Shown piece by piece: positions 1-10,655 of a DNA stretch of 64,000 nucleotides. Within the stretch, counting starts at the first letter, position 1. Every line of letters starts with the position of its first letter. The position numbers and the translations under genes are program-made. Origin of the DNA: Candidatus Poribacteria bacterium. GTDB taxonomy: Bacteria > Poribacteria > WGA-4E > WGA-3G. The notes under the pieces were generated by a model. It worked only from the letters and a program-made list of their open reading frames with translations, was not told the origin of the DNA and did not search any database. The DNA is taken from positions 160,001-224,000 of the forward strand of contig CAXXUA010000004.1 in assembly GCA_963663765.2 (NCBI GenBank), given 5' to 3'.

Positions 1-880
1 TCTCAAGTGCAGCACCTACTAATCGCAGCACCTGTTCGGTTGGTTCGGTAAAAACTACGTCTTCAAATCTACCCTGAACCTTTGTCCATTCTTCCCGTTG
101 CGATTGATCTGTACGTAGTGCGTAAGCCTCAAATGCTTGATGTAGAATAGTCATCAAAAACAACGGAGTCTGTTGGCTTCGGTCTGCTAATTCAGCAAGA
201 CTTTGAAGGATAAACATATCACCTTGTGACGGATTTTGTGCTGCAAACTCAAGAAATTTACCGAGTTCATCTATTATGAGTAACAGACCGGATCCACCTG
301 AGTCACATATTTGGTTGGTTGCAGATTCATATAAGTGTGTTACATCAGAAGCAGTAGGTAGGGAATCATTATTTGCAGTTTCCAAGAGTGCTTTAAGTTC
401 CTGCTGTAGTGAAATAGATATATTTGTTCCGTTAGAATTTGTAAGACCTCGATCTAAACTGCGTAATAATGCAAGCGAGAGCGGTGCACGTTCACCCGTT
501 ATGAGAACGGGACAGAATCCAGAACATGACTGATTTCCATTACCGTTTGTGTTTTTGAATCGTTCATATAGCGAAGTATCACCACGTTCTAATAGTTCTA
601 AAGCCTGTTGTGCTGTAGTAGAATTTGAATTTCCTAATAATTTGGCAGCAAATAGTGCAAAGGCTGATTTACCTGACCCGTAGGGACCAGTGAGTGACCA
701 TGCTTTAGATGTTGACCCATTTTCAAGCGTTGAAATTACACGCGATAACATCTCACGTGCTGTAGCGGTCAGGACATAACCATCTATAGCATTGTCTTTA
801 TAAAAGTCGCGTTCAAGATGGACAGAACGACGAAAACGTCCCTTTACATGAAAAAGATCAGACAATGGTACGTTAGCCAT
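1..880 (-). CDS. P-loop ATPase, SspC/BrxC-like, 5' part (runs off the window start)
   Basis: Translated by hand from ATG at 880: MANVPLSDLFHVKGRFRRSVHLERDFY..., Walker A WSLTGPYGSGKS, Walker B LLIIDELGKFLE. Overlaps the DUF4007 stop by 8 nt. Confidence 0.8.
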   Translation of the reverse strand, partial: MANVPLSDLFHVKGRFRRSVHLERDFYKDNAIDGYVLTATAREMLSRVISTLENGSTSKAWSLTGPYGSGKSAFALFAAKLLGNSNSTTAQQALELLERGDTSLYERFKNTNGNGNQSCSGFCPVLITGERAPLSLALLRSLDRGLTNSNGTNISISLQQELKALLETANNDSLPTASDVTHLYESATNQICDSGGSGLLLIIDELGKFLEFAAQNPSQGDMFILQSLAELADRSQQTPLFLMTILHQAFEAYALRTDQSQREEWTKVQGRFEDVVFTEPTEQVLRLVGAALE

Positions 881-1811
881 AATACCCCTCTAATAAATGT
901 ACTGGATTTACATCTCTGTATCTGTACACCTGTTTAAGGTCAGCAGTTTCATCGTATCGCAGTGCACCGTCTGTCAATAGTTCAAGTTGTTCTAAATATA
1001 GTGTCATTGAATCTTCATCTAATCTGTAAATACTGCCGGGACTCAATGGAGCAGACATAATACTCGAAAATGTTAGTGAGTCCCTTTCGGAGAAACCATT
1101 ATCCCAAAATGCCATCAATGTTGCTGTGAAAACTTCAAGTGGTAATGTTCCTTTTTCTCCTCGTTGAAATTCATATCCCTCACCATCAGGTTGTTCAGTA
1201 ATTAGATTTAGTTCAACCAGAGGACAATCAAAGGAATCTTCCACAACAGCAGTGACATTCCGCGATTGGCAATAGGTTCGGGTAAAGCAATTGACATCCC
1301 GTTGCAGAGTGTTTTTAGAGGGTGTACGCAAAGATGGTTTTTGCAATTTAGCCCAATCGTACATTACGTCTATGAATGTATCGTGAACAAATTGATTTTT
1401 CTTTAAGATGTTAAATGCCCAATACCATGTAGTCGCTTGATTGACATTGGTGGCAATTTTCCAGTGTATCAACCACAAGGTAGCAGGATCATCAAGGTAT
1501 GGATCATATCCCTCTTCATCATCAAAAATAGCTTTACCAAGTTCTGTAGGGATACAACGATCACGTGCTGCTTGATTAGTGTAGATTAGTCCTGCAACAC
1601 GACACCAGTGCCGAATAGACTGAACCATGTTTTTCCCAACACCTAATACTATTGTTGCGTTATCGGATGAAAAGATATTTGGATCTTCTGCCACAGCATC
1701 AACGCCCTTTTTCAGCCATGTATACCGAAATGGAAAGGTTTGGTGTCCTGAAAAGGACGGATTAATTTGATATTGTGAAGATGGATTTTCAGCGAGTAGT
1801 AGGTTTTCCAT
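873..1811 (-). CDS. DUF4007 family protein (SspB/BrxP-N-like)
   Basis: Motifs FSGHQTFPFRYTWLKKG, LGVGKNMVQSIRHW, DPYLDDPATLWLIHW and EDSFDCPLVELNLI are characteristic of DUF4007. Confidence 0.9.
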   Translation of the reverse strand: MENLLLAENPSSQYQINPSFSGHQTFPFRYTWLKKGVDAVAEDPNIFSSDNATIVLGVGKNMVQSIRHWCRVAGLIYTNQAARDRCIPTELGKAIFDDEEGYDPYLDDPATLWLIHWKIATNVNQATTWYWAFNILKKNQFVHDTFIDVMYDWAKLQKPSLRTPSKNTLQRDVNCFTRTYCQSRNVTAVVEDSFDCPLVELNLITEQPDGEGYEFQRGEKGTLPLEVFTATLMAFWDNGFSERDSLTFSSIMSAPLSPGSIYRLDEDSMTLYLEQLELLTDGALRYDETADLKQVYRYRDVNPVHLLEGYYG

Positions 1812-2821: not shown

Positions 2822-3838
2822 TTATTTTTCTGTATCAATTGGCATTGCGTGATCAGGGATTTCCACGCCTTGATCCTTCCAAAACTTATATGCCCCCCGA
2901 TGTAGCGGAATAAGAAATGCTTTTGATGCATTTTCAATTGTCATATCGGATGCAGCTAGATTTGTTTGGAGCATAATTTTATGTCCTTCCTCTGTATAAA
3001 CGTGCTTGAGGATATTATAGATAATCTCCTCTGATACAGCCTTGTTTGCAACGAGGACGGTTGGCATGACGATAGTCTTTACGGGTTCAACTTTACCCTC
3101 ATAAGAACCATCAGGTAATTTACCAGAAAAATAATATGGGTATTTGTCATAGAGACCGTACTTTCTCGCTGGCGTGTCAAGATCAAGCATACGTATAGAC
3201 TTTATGGTCGTCAATTCAATAATGGCATTGTTCGGCACACTGACAAGCCAGAAAAACCCTTTTGCATTTCCATCTTGGAGTTCTTTTCCGCCGTTAGTGC
3301 CACCCCTATATATCGGAGTGAACTTCTTCCAGATACCCGCGGACACAGCCAGTCGTTCTAAAGTCTTTGCAGTGCCAGAACCGGACGCACCACAAGCGAT
3401 CTTTTTACCGACGATATCTTCAAATGTGTGGATATCGCTGTTCTTAAGTGTTGAGAATTGACCGTAGGCATAATAAAGTAGCGTCACCATACGGATGTTC
3501 GTTTTTGGTTCTTCATCAGCAAACGCCTCTTGACCGTGATAACCGAGAGAACTTTCAGAAGCGAAGACCACAGCAAGTGCATTTTCCTTTTGGTTAACAC
3601 GACGCGTATTTTCAATTGAACCTGCAGAAGGCACAACAGAAATCTTTACATCTGGCACATGATGTTTCGCAACTTGTTTTATACCACCGGCAAATTGCGA
3701 GAAACTTCCACCGATAGCACCGCCATATATTGTTAGCCACTCTTTGTTCTTACTATCACTGCAGCCAATATAGACTGTCGAGAAAATGAGAATAAGACTA
3801 CAAAAAACCGCAAAATATTGATTTAACTTTTTCATCAT
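2822..3838 (-). CDS. TAXI family TRAP transporter solute-binding lipoprotein
   Basis: GGAIGGSF, PSAGSIEN, GKKIACGASGSGT and IPLHRGAYKFW motifs, plus an N-terminal signal with Cys. Confidence 0.9.
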   Translation of the reverse strand: MMKKLNQYFAVFCSLILIFSTVYIGCSDSKNKEWLTIYGGAIGGSFSQFAGGIKQVAKHHVPDVKISVVPSAGSIENTRRVNQKENALAVVFASESSLGYHGQEAFADEEPKTNIRMVTLLYYAYGQFSTLKNSDIHTFEDIVGKKIACGASGSGTAKTLERLAVSAGIWKKFTPIYRGGTNGGKELQDGNAKGFFWLVSVPNNAIIELTTIKSIRMLDLDTPARKYGLYDKYPYYFSGKLPDGSYEGKVEPVKTIVMPTVLVANKAVSEEIIYNILKHVYTEEGHKIMLQTNLAASDMTIENASKAFLIPLHRGAYKFWKDQGVEIPDHAMPIDTEK

Positions 3839-3874
3839 AAGTCCACCTTTTTATTTCCAATGAAATAAAGAATT

Positions 3875-4255
3875 TCACTGATTCCTTTTTTTGTAATAGA
3901 GATAAACCCCTACAACACCTGCGATTGCCCCGACTACATCCGCAACCCAATCTGCTATTGTAGCAAACCTACCGGGAACATACATCTGATGGAACTCATC
4001 ACTTGCTCCATATAGAATTGAGATGAGTGCAGCAGTAATCCATATCCATTTTGTGGGGAAACCCTTTGGAGGTGCTTTGACAAGTGCTATTGATAGCAAC
4101 ACGCTGAGGATGCTATATTCTATGAAATGATAGAGTTTGTCAATTGTCAACCACTCAAACTTTGGCATCGGCAAGGGTGGTTGTTGCATTGACGAGATGA
4201 CAAAAATGAGAACCATGTAGAGAATGGGTGGGACCCAATATTTAAGAAAGTGCAT
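3875..4255 (-). CDS. VanZ family membrane protein
   Basis: [24 protein letters not shown] and DWVAD motifs. Start taken at MHFLKYW. Confidence 0.85.
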
Positions 4256-6209
4256 TGAGTATTGCATCTACGTCGTAGACACATCCTCCCCAGGTTCCGC
4301 CCCCGATAGCTTGCAATGCAGCCCAAAGTCGTGTGTCGTCAGGTATCTGTTCATCTGGAGATAGGTCGGGACGTTGTTTCCTTTGTGTCAATATACTTTC
4401 GCCCGTAGCAGTACCGAACAGGTCATCACCATGTCCTACCAAGTCAATACTACCGATCAACGTACGAGTATCAATCTCTATTTGGATAATATCTCCGTCA
4501 AGGACTTTTCCGATTGGACCTCCAGCAAGTGCCTCTGGACCAACATGACCGATACACGCACCTGTAGATACACCTGAAAAACGTGCATCTGTAATTAATG
4601 CGATACGTTTCCCAAATGAGAGATGTTTGAGTGCCGCAGTGAGTTGATATACTTCTTCCATACCTGTACCTTGTGGACCACGACAACACAGCACCATGAT
4701 GTCCCCTGGTTTGATATTGCTTTCTCCTTGTCCTTTGAGTGATTGGATCGCGTCAACTTCCCGAACAAACACACGCGCTGGACCTGTCATCCGATACACG
4801 CCATCGGAGTCAACGACACTCGGATCGATTGCAGTGCTTTTGATAACAGAACCCTCTGGTGCAAGGTTTCCTCGTGGGAATGTAACAGTGCTTGTTAATC
4901 CTGCATTCTGCGCTGCATCTGGATTCAAAATCACTTCATCAGGGGCAATATTGTCAAGGCTACTAAGCAGTTCTCGGACGCGTTGCCGTCTTTCAGATTT
5001 CTCCCACCAATCAAGATTTTTACCGAGTGGTTCACCAGTTACTGTCAACACATCTTCGTTTAGCAACCCATCCATCTCGCGTAAATGTAACATCACCTCT
5101 GGCACTCCACCTGCAAGAAACACACGTACTGTTGGATGTCCTACTGGTCCATTCGGAAGCACATCTACGAGACGCGGCACCTGTTGATTCACTTCTGTCC
5201 AATCATCTACGGAGGGGCGTTCGAGTCCTGCAGCGTGTGCGATCGCGGGGATATGTAAAAGCAAGTTTGTTGATCCGCCGAATGCCGCATGCACTACCAT
5301 TGCGTTCCGAATTGCTTTGGGTGTGACAATATCCTTCATTGTTATCCCTTTCGCTGCCAAATTGACGACTGCTCTTGCAGATCGCAAACCCATATCTGAC
5401 CATATATTTTGCCCAGATGGAGATAACGCAGTGTGGGTTAAACTCATACCTAACGCTTCTCCGACAACTTGTGACGTTGCAGCAGTTCCCAAGAATTGAC
5501 ATCCGCCACCGGGTGTAGCACATGCACGACATCCCATGTCTGCGGCATCTTGTAGACTAATCTCTCCGTGTGCGAACCGTGCCCCGATTGTCTGTATCTT
5601 TCCTGCGTCTTCACCTGTGGTCGGGGGTAAAGTTACACCTCCCGGGACGAGTACGGTTGGCAGTTCTCGCATGGATGCAAGTGCCATCATCATTGCGGGT
5701 AATCCTTTATCGCAGGTTGCTACACCGACAACACCTTTTCGTGTGGGTAGTGAACGGATAAGTCTGCGGAATATCTGAGCTGCATCGTTGCGATAGGCGA
5801 GACTATCCATCATACCGACAGTGCCTTGCGTTCGTCCATCACAGGGATCGGAACAGTAGCCAGCAAACGGAATTGCTGCAAGTTCTTTGATTTCACGTGC
5901 AACTGCTTGCATCAGTAGACCTACTTCCCAATGTCCTGTATGGTATCCGAGTGCAATTGGACTACCATCGGGTGCGCGAATTCCGCCTTGTGTGCTGAGT
6001 ATCAGAAACTCCTCACGTCGTAGTTCTGCTGGTGCCCATCCCATTGCTGTGTTGTGACTCAAGCCAAAAATATCACCACTTGGACGGTTGAGTAGCATCT
6101 CTTCTGTGAGTGGAAGACTACCTTCTGGTCCCTTAGCGTGTGTCTGAATGTCGTAAATGTCGGTGTCGCCAGTTTCTAAGATTTCAGTGTAGTTTATTGG
6201 TTTTTGCAT
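4242..6209 (-). CDS. yagF: YjhG/YagF family D-xylonate dehydratase (IlvD/Edd superfamily)
   Basis: [43 protein letters not shown] and [11 protein letters not shown]; 655 aa. Confidence 0.9.
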
Positions 6210-7373: not shown

Positions 7374-7814
7374 CTAAATTTCTTGTGGTTCTATTTTTAC
7401 AGTTGAAAGTAAAACAAGGGAACGTCGTAACGTGCTAAATGCTTGCTTTCGTTTGGATTTAGAGAGATCGTTTTTGGACGAAACTGTAATCAGTGAATGT
7501 GATAAATTCTTCGGAAAATCTAAAATAGGTGCATAGATTACATCCACAGTGTGATTATCTATTGTTATTCCTCGGACTTCACCAGCAATAAGACTAACGA
7601 TACCATCAGTGTCATGCAACTTTGACGTTTTAGGGTCATAATTTTTCAGTTTAGCGCGATCAACGGAGGGTTGCTGATCTCTGTCAAAAAAAGCCTTGGA
7701 ATTGATTTCGACTTTTCCTTCGTTATTATGGGAATAACGTTGTATGTGGTCATTTATTGGCAAGCGTCGATAAAGTTCTTCATCATCCTCAACAAAATCG
7801 TTCTTATTCATCAA
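7374..7814 (-). CDS. Hypothetical protein, putative ADP-ribosyltransferase/RES-like toxin
   Basis: DDEELYRR...AF.D...PSVDRA...GIV...N..HS pattern. Paralogue at 10808-11305. The fold call is inference from R/S/H spacing. Confidence 0.55.
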   Translation of the reverse strand: MMNKNDFVEDDEELYRRLPINDHIQRYSHNNEGKVEINSKAFFDRDQQPSVDRAKLKNYDPKTSKLHDTDGIVSLIAGEVRGITIDNHTVDVIYAPILDFPKNLSHSLITVSSKNDLSKSKRKQAFSTLRRSLVLLSTVKIEPQEI

Positions 7815-8400
7815 GAAACCATTCCCAAAGCGTTAGATGATTTTCCCTGTTAAGTGAGTCCGTTTGTGTCATCGTATTGTCACTTGTCCTCCATATCTTG
7901 GTATACCTCGTCTCATTTTCTTGTATATCAAAACATAAAGACCGTTTGTCATTATAGCATTCAAAGGTTATATAACCATCTTCATCGCTACAGATGAAGG
8001 GTTCAAGTTGTAGGAGTCTGGCAGAAATGAAATCATTGTCCAGCAATTCTTCTATAAAATGCTTTGCTCTGTTTATAGTTGGCTCGGTTGGTTTTTTTGA
8101 GTCGTATCCATCCCAGTCATCTTCCCGTTGTGCTATCACTGCTAATCGCTCTACTATTTTACGTTTTTGCCAAGATAAAAGAATTGTCTTATAAAAGTCA
8201 TTTCTTACTATATTTGCGGATGTGGATCCCTCTTGTTCTAAAGTAGTGGTGTCAGTGTTGAATGAATCCATTACGCTTGATAGAAAATGGTATTCATCAG
8301 ATTCTGTAGTTGTATTGATGAGTTCAAAAGACTTCGGTTTTACAAGTAGAATATTGGTATCCTCATGCTCCAGACTCTGCCAATGTTTCGCGTAAGACAT
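7804..8400 (-). CDS. Hypothetical 'WDGY' protein, putative antitoxin/partner
   Basis: C-terminal QREDDWDGYDSKKP...PFICSDEDGYITFE...LWEWF matches 11298-11729. Start uncertain (8400 or 8469). Confidence 0.7.
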   Translation of the reverse strand: MSYAKHWQSLEHEDTNILLVKPKSFELINTTTESDEYHFLSSVMDSFNTDTTTLEQEGSTSANIVRNDFYKTILLSWQKRKIVERLAVIAQREDDWDGYDSKKPTEPTINRAKHFIEELLDNDFISARLLQLEPFICSDEDGYITFECYNDKRSLCFDIQENETRYTKIWRTSDNTMTQTDSLNRENHLTLWEWFLDE

Positions 8401-9148
8401 CAGTAATACTCCACTGGTAGATATTCCAACAAAGTTTTTTGAAGATATCACACCTTGAAAGTATGTCATTCATTTCTCCTTTTCTATTGTCAGAATAACA
8501 GTCTATGTCAATTACATACGATTTCTCATTAGTAAATTGTGTTTTCTTAAACTTTCCAGATACATTTGATAAAACATGAACCACATTGGATTTCATCTCA
8601 CCGTCGTTGAATTGTGATATTTTTCGTAATGTCTCAATGTCTGCTGCTATAGGGGTGTTTAATTCAGGGAAGATATACTTCGGGATATAAGTTTCAACTC
8701 CCTGTTTCGCGTGCGGGAGAGAGACCTTATTTGCTACATTTTTATGCCTGAGACCAATCCGAGGAAAATAAGAAGGTTCATAGATATTACTGAATATTTG
8801 CAAAACCGTTTCTAATTTTTCTCTAAAGTTTTCGTAATTTTTGTAGTTTCCGTGGCAAGTAAGAGCGAGAAAATTTTGAGCTAAAGATACTTCCCAGTCT
8901 TTTTCTTTAGAAAAGAAGCGAAATACTTTAGCTGTAGATACTTTCTTTTTTATTTCCTTAGGTATATCCGATGGTAAGAGAGGTATATCCGAAACAAGTT
9001 CGGGGTACCCCTCTTTCCTTACAATCTCCTGAAACTCAGAAGGTTCCTCTTGTGAAATTCTCATAATTTCAGGAAAACGTGCCTGAAATAGCACCTCAAA
9101 TAAGATATTATGTTTATATTCTACTCTTTCAAATTCTTCAAAATGCAT
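8363..9148 (-). CDS. TIGR04255 family protein
   Basis: YKHNILFEVLFQARFP, YKNYENF, RIGLRHKN, YVIDIDC and IYQWSITD fit the family. Probable start MHFEEF at 9148. Confidence 0.8.
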   Translation of the reverse strand: MHFEEFERVEYKHNILFEVLFQARFPEIMRISQEEPSEFQEIVRKEGYPELVSDIPLLPSDIPKEIKKKVSTAKVFRFFSKEKDWEVSLAQNFLALTCHGNYKNYENFREKLETVLQIFSNIYEPSYFPRIGLRHKNVANKVSLPHAKQGVETYIPKYIFPELNTPIAADIETLRKISQFNDGEMKSNVVHVLSNVSGKFKKTQFTNEKSYVIDIDCYSDNRKGEMNDILSRCDIFKKLCWNIYQWSITDVLRETLAESGA

Positions 9149-9369: not shown

Positions 9370-9780
9370 TTATTCAAAGATTTGTGTCACAGGACACGAA
9401 AATCCTTCAACGACATCCTCACCGGTCAACGTGTCTTCGTAGTTTAGCAGCGTGATTTCTGTCTCTGAACGATAGACTGTTACCGTTTTTGCAATTGGTT
9501 CAATAACCCAAACAAGACGTGTCCCTGCCTTCAGATATGCAGACGTTTTCTCAATCACATCATAATGCTTGTCTGTTGGTGAAACGATCTCTATTGCAAG
9601 ATCAGGTGCATCGGAGAACCCTTTCAGTTTTTCTTCTGATAACCGATCTGTTGAAACGAACGCCACATCAGGCTTTACTACCCGGTCAATTAAATGAAAG
9701 GTTGTTTCTAATATATACAATCGTACAATACCTTCGCCATTTTTGAGTGCTTCAGTTGAATGAGTATATAGTGTTGATCT
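9370..9780 (-). pseudogene. Uma2 family endonuclease, 5'-decayed
   Basis: C-terminal ~110 aa nearly identical to 12325-12891 (KPDVAFVS, APDLAIEIVSPTD). The N-terminal part is not in an open frame. Confidence 0.8.
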
Positions 9781-10284: not shown

Positions 10285-10655
10285 GCACAATCTGGCAGAA
10301 TGTGCTACAACTACCCGCATAATCTGGAAGAATGTGCTACAACTGCCCGCACAATCTGGAAGAATGTGCTACAACTGCCCGCACAATCTGGAAGAATGTG
10401 CTACAACTGCCCGCACAATCTGGAAGAATGTGCTACAACTACCCGCACAATCTGGAAGAATGTGCTACAACTGCCCGCACAATCTGGAAGAATGTGCTAC
10501 AACTACCCGCACAATCTGGAAGAATGTGCTACAACTGCCCGCACAATCTGGAAGAATGTGCTACAACTACCCGCACAATCTGGAAGAATGTGCTACAACT
10601 GCCCGCACAATCTGGAAGAATGTGCTACAACTACCCGCACAATCTGGAAGAATGT
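10285..10655. repeat. Tandem array of a 32-bp REP-like unit (11 full copies plus a partial)
   Basis: Unit gcacaatctggaagaatgtgctacaact(a/g)ccc with no unique spacers. The reverse complement is a GTAG-initiated hairpin. An extra detached copy lies at ~10746-10770. Confidence 0.95.

Follow-up and report, generated by a model that had tools for sequence, protein, structure and literature searches.

In toxin-antitoxin-chaperone (TAC) systems, a short C-terminal sequence makes the antitoxin dependent on its chaperone and is missing in chaperone-independent antitoxins (PMC5105189); tails conferring such dependence are also documented in a second study (PMC6377645), and TAC systems are the subject of a preprint (10.1101/2024.02.24.581848). 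In CmdTAC, the chaperone senses a capsid protein and the toxin is an mRNA ADP-ribosyltransferase (PMC11618068). In the Tse2-Tsi2 pair of Pseudomonas aeruginosa, a type VI effector is neutralised by a small acidic partner (reviewed in PMC6099711). Here we analyse a module of three genes, A, B and C, at positions 7374-9148 of a 64,000-nucleotide stretch of a Candidatus Poribacteria genome (hereafter the window). A encodes a TIGR04255 protein, B a 'WDGY' protein and C a small protein with a predicted ADP-ribosyltransferase (ART) superfamily fold. Our principal new result is that B carries an N-terminal extension when a TIGR04255 gene lies upstream and lacks it otherwise. We propose, judging the case to be evenly balanced, that the module is a toxin-antitoxin (TA) pair made dependent on the TIGR04255 accessory via a tail on the antitoxin.

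The three open reading frames (ORFs) lie on the minus strand; they are co-oriented and overlap in succession, as an earlier sequence-only reading of this DNA had described. The longest ORF of gene A extends to 9301; we set its start at 9148 because nearly all of the 119 homologues listed besides its own protein (52-78% identical) are ~261 aa long. The A/B overlap measures 38 nt, or 107 nt when counted from an alternative in-frame ATG of B at 8469, and the B/C overlap is 8 nt; gene C has a TTG at 7814 besides its ATG start. The upstream reading of B within the A/B overlap ('MSLQN...GTSSSGAS') looks conserved. Dual coding of the long overlap was nevertheless rejected, since synonymous variation across the last 35 codons of A (0.37-0.52 versus ~0.42 overall, 26 genes) is not reduced. 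For the same reason B probably starts near the stop of A, at the called position, and we take the long overlap as a by-product of the conserved FRWCIT motif of A. A promoter and terminator scan returned nothing usefully above shuffles.

A pattern scan for relatives of C, with one genome per species, gave 58 loci. Most are in Candidatus Poribacteria metagenome-assembled genomes, and others occur in Nitrospirales, Methylococcales, Nitrospinota, Chthonomonadales, Fimbriimonadaceae, Myxococcota and Desulfobacteraceae. Using our own hidden Markov models (HMMs), we found the B domain directly upstream of C or a C fragment in 57/58 loci, usually with a 4-nt overlap; the single miss is L033. Small adjacent genes kept as a pair, with the putative antitoxin first, fit the type II TA layout. 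TIGR04255 genes occur in 83 of the 176 genomes of the window's phylum, and our survey of that phylum covered 29 loci besides the window's own. The A subfamily is present at 21 of these; B comes next at all 21 and C then follows at 20, the last one (L084) ending before C. The remaining 8 loci hold other TIGR04255 subfamilies, without B or C. These two sets share genomes, and related loci are not independent of each other. Conserved linkage of the three genes, on which the earlier reading depended, is therefore found in other genomes. Broken copies are frequent (C' in the window, L004, L017, L024, L039, L057, L061 and L064); at L057 and L064, C is split by a ~1 kb insertion after its first ~37 codons.

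The 58 loci contain 60 B genes. Extension length was taken as the distance between the first in-frame ATG and the beginning of the B domain, and the upstream genes were re-checked by broad profile, NCBIfam and genome search. A full-length TIGR04255 gene lies upstream of 25 B genes (21 of the A subfamily, plus L023, L050, L052 and L063), and in 24 of them the extension is at least 84 aa. No TIGR04255 gene lies upstream of 32, and in 29 of these the extension is at most 31 aa. A cut or decayed TIGR04255 gene precedes the other three (L041, L044 and L061). In triads the first-ATG measure is too generous, the B frame being open into A; counted conservatively from the A stop to the B domain, the distance is 167-713 nt (56-238 codons). 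This distribution fits the idea of an 'addiction tail'. We also noted that at L044 (3944-5456) TIGR04255 is reduced to its first 37 profile positions and the B extension is 31 aa; this locus looks like a triad decayed into a pair.

The window's own genome repeats this split, with a long B beside A and short B proteins without it. It has a single TIGR04255 gene and three further B-C pairs, one frameshifted and one with an in-frame stop, whose B proteins are 142-143 aa where read; the extension is missing in the paralogues B' and B''. The second pair lies within the window (10808-11729) and has no TIGR04255 gene (Table 1). In its C' the match to the family HMM is split between two frames, the C-terminal helix and final strand typical of the family (…FKLLQLALAELAEKNGWAVEP) being read in another one; C' is a pseudogene unless the assembly is in error here. 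The third pair, on contig C13, is intact, with a B of 142 aa, and the fourth, on contig C5, is degraded. A single genome holding natural pairs with and without the tail and TIGR04255 amounts to a ready-made experiment.

Gene B has 37 homologues, and an alignment of the family shows invariant residues at R85, R92, W96, D97, S101, K102, P104 and D139-G142. The family ends in the conserved domain (...WEWFLDE), and its variable part is at the N-terminus. A short stretch right behind the stop of A (...HEDTNIL) is conserved. Residues 1-66 contain 17% Asp/Glu and 27% Ser/Thr, with a net charge of -7; their composition confirms the acidic, Ser/Thr-rich extension that had been noticed on the middle gene. 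Extensions are hypervariable among loci, and some have internal repeats of ~60 aa. The longest (~295 aa, at L078, L086 and L087) contain two to three such repeats (…TGTNYW..FQ..IEN.SH…). Searches of Pfam, NCBIfam and PDB sequences with gene B gave no match; in PADLOC, the B domain weakly matches the C-terminal region of candidate PDC-M32A (E 0.019), which the paralogue B' matches at E 1.3e-7.

TIGR04255 extends far beyond this module, with 1,716 clusters at 50% identity (E<=0.001). Of the 42 loci examined, 8 belong to the window's phylum and the other 34 to Gammaproteobacteria and further genomes; two from unpublished genomes were left out. Our own profile located A in 35. Directly downstream of each of these 35 genes is a same-strand ORF that abuts it, 111-271 aa long and beginning -157 to +219 nt relative to the A stop. 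In the corresponding control, ORFs of at least 100 aa occur downstream in 35/35, upstream in 13/35 and on the opposite strand on either side in 10/35. A third ORF is present in 32/35. Among the second genes, 9/33 have weak helix-turn-helix (HTH) Pfam matches at roughly residues 70-160, one of them above the Pfam cut-off. Pfam assigns PIN to one gene in second and one in third position, and HNH to 2/23 third genes; the other 20 of the 23 third genes have no Pfam match. The same layout of three genes recurs on three plasmids (Rhizobium, Chroococcidiopsis and Sinorhizobium), and on two of them the second gene has a weak HTH match. At L073, one of the seven loci where A was not placed by profile, the cassette is present when read by hand; at L069, another of the seven, it is absent.

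Two divergent TIGR04255 genes, at L105 and L066, precede second genes in which B-like motifs are faintly visible. The second gene of L105 matches the B domain weakly (E 1.7e-4), and that of L066 contains '…DLEDGSLLIEW…'. By hhalign, the second and third genes of L066 show no significant match to B and C (E 0.07 and 0.34), with just three close homologues available for profile building, and neither third gene is C by HMM. These loci hint at use of the B domain with other effectors as well.

From these cassettes we suggest, as a tentative and somewhat doubtful generalisation, that TIGR04255 marks a widespread, undescribed class of three-gene TA or defence cassettes. In such a class a TBP-like protein would control antitoxins through an N-terminal tail, serving interchangeable pairs (ART-like, PIN, HNH and many of unknown fold), as a second, independent invention of 'addiction' beside SecB-type TAC. 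The term 'TIGR04255' was not found in the literature that we searched, a search that left uncovered subscription journals and supplements, where TA or defence surveys could name it.

Gene A matches the NCBIfam model TIGR04255 at 114.8 bits (cut-off 30; E 5.7e-33) over profile positions 2-251 of 252. It has no Pfam family at E<=1, hence no SecB by sequence, and no PADLOC match at E<=1. The structure model (pLDDT 95.4) is a TBP-like double alpha/beta saddle, and all of its best matches are such saddles, none of them clear: the catalytic domains of McsB and arginine kinase (Z 7.4, 182 residues), AdoMetDC (Z 7.0), TBP (Z 5.0-5.2), Med18/20, RepDE and TBP-like proteins from giant viruses (best E 1.9e-7). 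The SecB-like fold that the sequence-only reading looked for is not borne out, as no SecB is among the matches listed by Foldseek or VIA. A PDB profile search gave a single short match to Sp100 (E 3e-4 over 54 residues), which we take as chance. ESM Atlas searches with A and B' returned just unnamed or TIGR04255 clusters, and a PHROGs search gave weak matches only, the best being A to phrog_5464 (E 6e-4). Prediction of a complex of A with full-length B scored 0.01 against a mark of 0.32; run without controls, it is evidence neither way.

The saddle of A bears on an alternative in which B and C form an ordinary type II TA pair and A regulates its transcription; A would then be a DNA-binding, TBP-like subunit that the B tail brings to the operator, rather than a stabiliser or sensor. 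Fold matches of A that include TBP itself and rolling-circle Rep proteins would suit such a role, as would the existence of B-C pairs without A and the lack of an HTH in B, in contrast to the weak HTH matches of second genes elsewhere in TIGR04255 cassettes. The TBP matches, however, rank below the enzyme saddles McsB and AdoMetDC, and A is kept even in cassettes whose second gene has an HTH. A is also far more conserved (up to 78% identity) than B or C, which fits a conserved partner better than a local operator. We regard a regulatory role for A as rather unlikely.

Gene C has 80 homologues. Invariant in the family are E12, L14, Y15, A41, F42, P49-A54, P61, P96 and H106, and R16 is nearly so. 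The LYRR (14-17), SVDR (50-53) and N..HS motifs picked out in the sequence-only reading are present, the last as NLSHS (103-107), and coincide with the conserved columns Y15, R16, S50-R53 and H106. Sequence searches gave no Pfam family at E<=1, no PDB match with a profile, no NCBIfam match and no PADLOC match at E<=1, and a scan of viral contigs with C-family patterns turned up no relative. The structure model is confident (pLDDT 92.2, pTM 0.86). Foldseek found no significant match to it, the most probable row being KptA. In a wide VIA search, the top row was Tse2 (Z 7.2, rmsd 3.4 Å, 107 residues), followed by KptA (Z 6.8), AvrPphF (5.5), mouse Tpt1 (5.5) and diphtheria toxin (5.0), with TreX, Scabin, TreTu, DarT, pertussis toxin, CopC and NarE in lower rows; DarT and Xre-RES structures scored Z 3.2-3.9. 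Among the 20 best rows, 18 or more presumably belong to the ART superfamily, as judged from their titles. In a second structural look, the top eight rows were all Tpt1/KptA or Tse2 (Z 5.7-7.2), and the next, unrelated, row scored 3.6. The C-terminal lobe of Tpt1/KptA aligned at Z 5.7-7.2 (rmsd 2.8-3.6 Å over 87-93 residues, ~10-13% identity) and Tse2 at Z 7.1; across both searches Tse2 matched at Z 7.1-7.2 over 104-107 residues. The model thus places C in the ART-type split beta-sheet NAD-binding fold, closest to the NAD-binding lobe of Tpt1/KptA and to Tse2, an assignment that stays at the level of fold because all Z scores are under 8. An ART-like fold for C had been anticipated from its motifs.

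The classical ART catalytic triad is [R/H]-[S/Y]-[E/Q/D] on strands 1, 2 and 5. In the candidate active site of C, the first strand carries Y15-R16, the following core strand S50, and strand 106-113 opens with H106. Mapped purely by strand order, the three triad positions would fall to R16, S50 and H106. Among described TA systems, DarTG and RES-Xre (ParST, MbcTA) likewise encode an ART-superfamily toxin in a small operon. They are two-gene systems, however; C has no Pfam RES or DarT match, and the sequence of B is that of neither a macrodomain nor an Xre protein.

The resemblance of C to Tpt1/KptA, whose NAD-binding C-terminal lobe is its best structural match, could also mean that the module is not a toxin system. 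C would then be an NAD-dependent enzyme of RNA- or DNA-end repair or marking with A and B as specificity or regulatory subunits, in a resident housekeeping role. Consistent with residence, the module, as triad or pair, occupies the same site in several related genomes, with CotH-ankyrin and Uma2 genes on one side and ilvD and VanZ on the other. Against it stand the sporadic distribution in the phylum seen in the survey above, the several paralogous copies in one genome, the frequency of broken copies and the neighbours at other loci (type I restriction-modification, TIR-Mrr, HEPN-NT, AAA_15 and transposase genes). C also differs from Tpt1/KptA in lacking the N-terminal RNA-binding lobe and any sequence-profile match, and in its TA-like operon. 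On this evidence we find a housekeeping enzyme improbable.

A third alternative makes C a polymorphic toxin in the manner of Tse2, secreted or delivered by contact, with B as immunity protein and A as delivery adaptor or chaperone. It draws on the size and fold that C shares with Tse2 but has very little chance of being right. C is a free-standing protein of 145 aa without a trafficking domain at its N-terminus. The would-be immunity gene precedes and overlaps that of the toxin, as in TA operons; in Tse2-Tsi2 the immunity gene follows the toxin and there is no third gene. Neither in the window nor in the scanned flanks do genes of a secretion system adjoin the module.

A TA pair with a TIGR04255 protein that acts through the tail of B, and does so for many different pairs, is the simplest account of the gene linkage, the tail association and the other cassettes. 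C would be a small NAD-dependent enzyme of the ART superfamily and a growth-arresting effector, perhaps acting on nucleic acid; this target is a guess from the nearest folds, Tpt1/KptA, which act on nucleic-acid phosphates according to their entry titles. The conserved C-terminal domain of B would bind and neutralise C, and its N-terminal extension would make B dependent on A or place it under the control of A, whose TBP-like saddle may hold the tail. If A were lost or diverted, for example by a phage product, C would be freed. Two-gene B-C pairs without the tail would work without A.

This proposal mirrors the logic of SecB-type TAC and of CmdTAC. Like these systems, the module has three genes and combines interchangeable TA pairs with one conserved accessory; as in TAC, the antitoxin extension is found only where the accessory is present, and the CmdTAC toxin too is an ADP-ribosyltransferase. 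The accessory, however, is a TIGR04255 protein with TBP-like fold matches that is encoded first, whereas that of TAC is SecB. The B extension is N-terminal, long and hypervariable, where the TAC tail is short and C-terminal, so the analogy drawn earlier to the TAC tail does not hold for its position. Nor does the likeness to CmdTAC extend to sequence: known defence models in PADLOC gave no match beyond that of B and B' to PDC-M32A, in a version (2.0.0) whose coverage of CmdTAC is unconfirmed.

Several observations weigh against a tail-dependent TA pair. The tail association has exceptions: L063 has a TIGR04255 gene and an extension of just 32 aa, and extensions occur without TIGR04255 at L059 (106 aa), L008 (70 aa) and L060 (51 aa). 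At L059 and L008 a different ORF (217 and 155 aa) overlaps the B start; the 217-aa ORF was rejected as a TIGR04255 protein by hhalign. Many of the loci come from one phylum and are not independent, and one TIGR04255 gene (L069, 309 aa) has no cassette, an ABC ATPase-like ORF following it. The fold of A gives no function, and a TBP-like saddle could equally bind DNA. The fold Z scores, all under 8, lie in a range that the search tool rates as common, and no ART, RES, DarT or Tpt1 Pfam model matches any of 42 C-family members at E<=10. Strand 106-113 of C has no conserved Glu at the third classical ART position, where H106 was put by strand order and not by superposition, and the Tpt1 N-terminal lobe is missing. 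Finally, a conserved chromosomal site next to ilvD in many related genomes is less typical of mobile defence genes.

TIGR04255 is a large family with a curated model, and none of the A, B and C families has a described function. If the TA proposal is true, TIGR04255 gains a role and C founds a new family of ART-fold toxins whose closest folds are nucleic-acid-modifying enzymes. Antitoxin dependence on a third protein through a tail would then have evolved at least twice, with unrelated folds.

The sequence-only reading had placed the module in a defence-rich stretch between Ssp-like and Zorya loci. SspB and a type II Zorya do flank it, and further defence-like genes span 20126-28378; housekeeping genes intervene on the SspB side, though, and the module's site is conserved in relatives (Table 1). 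At Nitrospirales loci, the module lies among housekeeping genes.

Table 1. Features of the module and its surroundings, in window coordinates.
Feature	Position	Strand	Description
SspB	873-1811		
NMT1-like, VanZ and IlvD genes	2822-6209		Housekeeping; between SspB and the module
Gene C	7374-7811	-	145 aa, ATG start; predicted ART-superfamily fold; putative toxin
Gene B	7804-8400	-	'WDGY' protein, 198 aa at the called start; putative antitoxin or adaptor
B conserved C-terminal domain	7804-8202	-	~130 aa; AQREDxWDGYDSKKP ... SDEDGYIT
B N-terminal extension	8203-8400	-	Residues 1-66; acidic, Ser/Thr-rich, hypervariable
Gene A	8363-9148	-	TIGR04255 protein, 261 aa from MHFEEF; first gene of the cassette
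Uma2, truncated	9370-9720		116 aa, profile positions 59-171; beside the triad
32-bp tandem repeat array	10285-10655		11.6 copies, 96% matches; between the two modules
C'	10808-11305	-	C paralogue, 42% identity; frameshifted near codon 127
B'	11298-11729	-	B paralogue without N-terminal extension, 143 aa; 41% identity over the domain, E 1e-34
Uma2, full	12325-12891		188 aa; beside the second pair
CotH-kinase + ankyrin-repeat protein	from 12948		891 aa; directly abuts the Zorya operon
Zorya type II (ZorE, ZorB, ZorA)	15808-19438		
Fused AriA/AriB-like protein	20126-21664		
FRG+TPR protein	23130-24488		
AAA_15/AAA_21 ATPase	26380-27900		Overlaps a 172-aa ORF

The two Uma2 copies, one beside each B-C pair, suggest a segmental duplication of a 'Uma2 + B-C' unit. 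The repeat array between the two modules gives three overlapping repeat ORFs on the plus strand.

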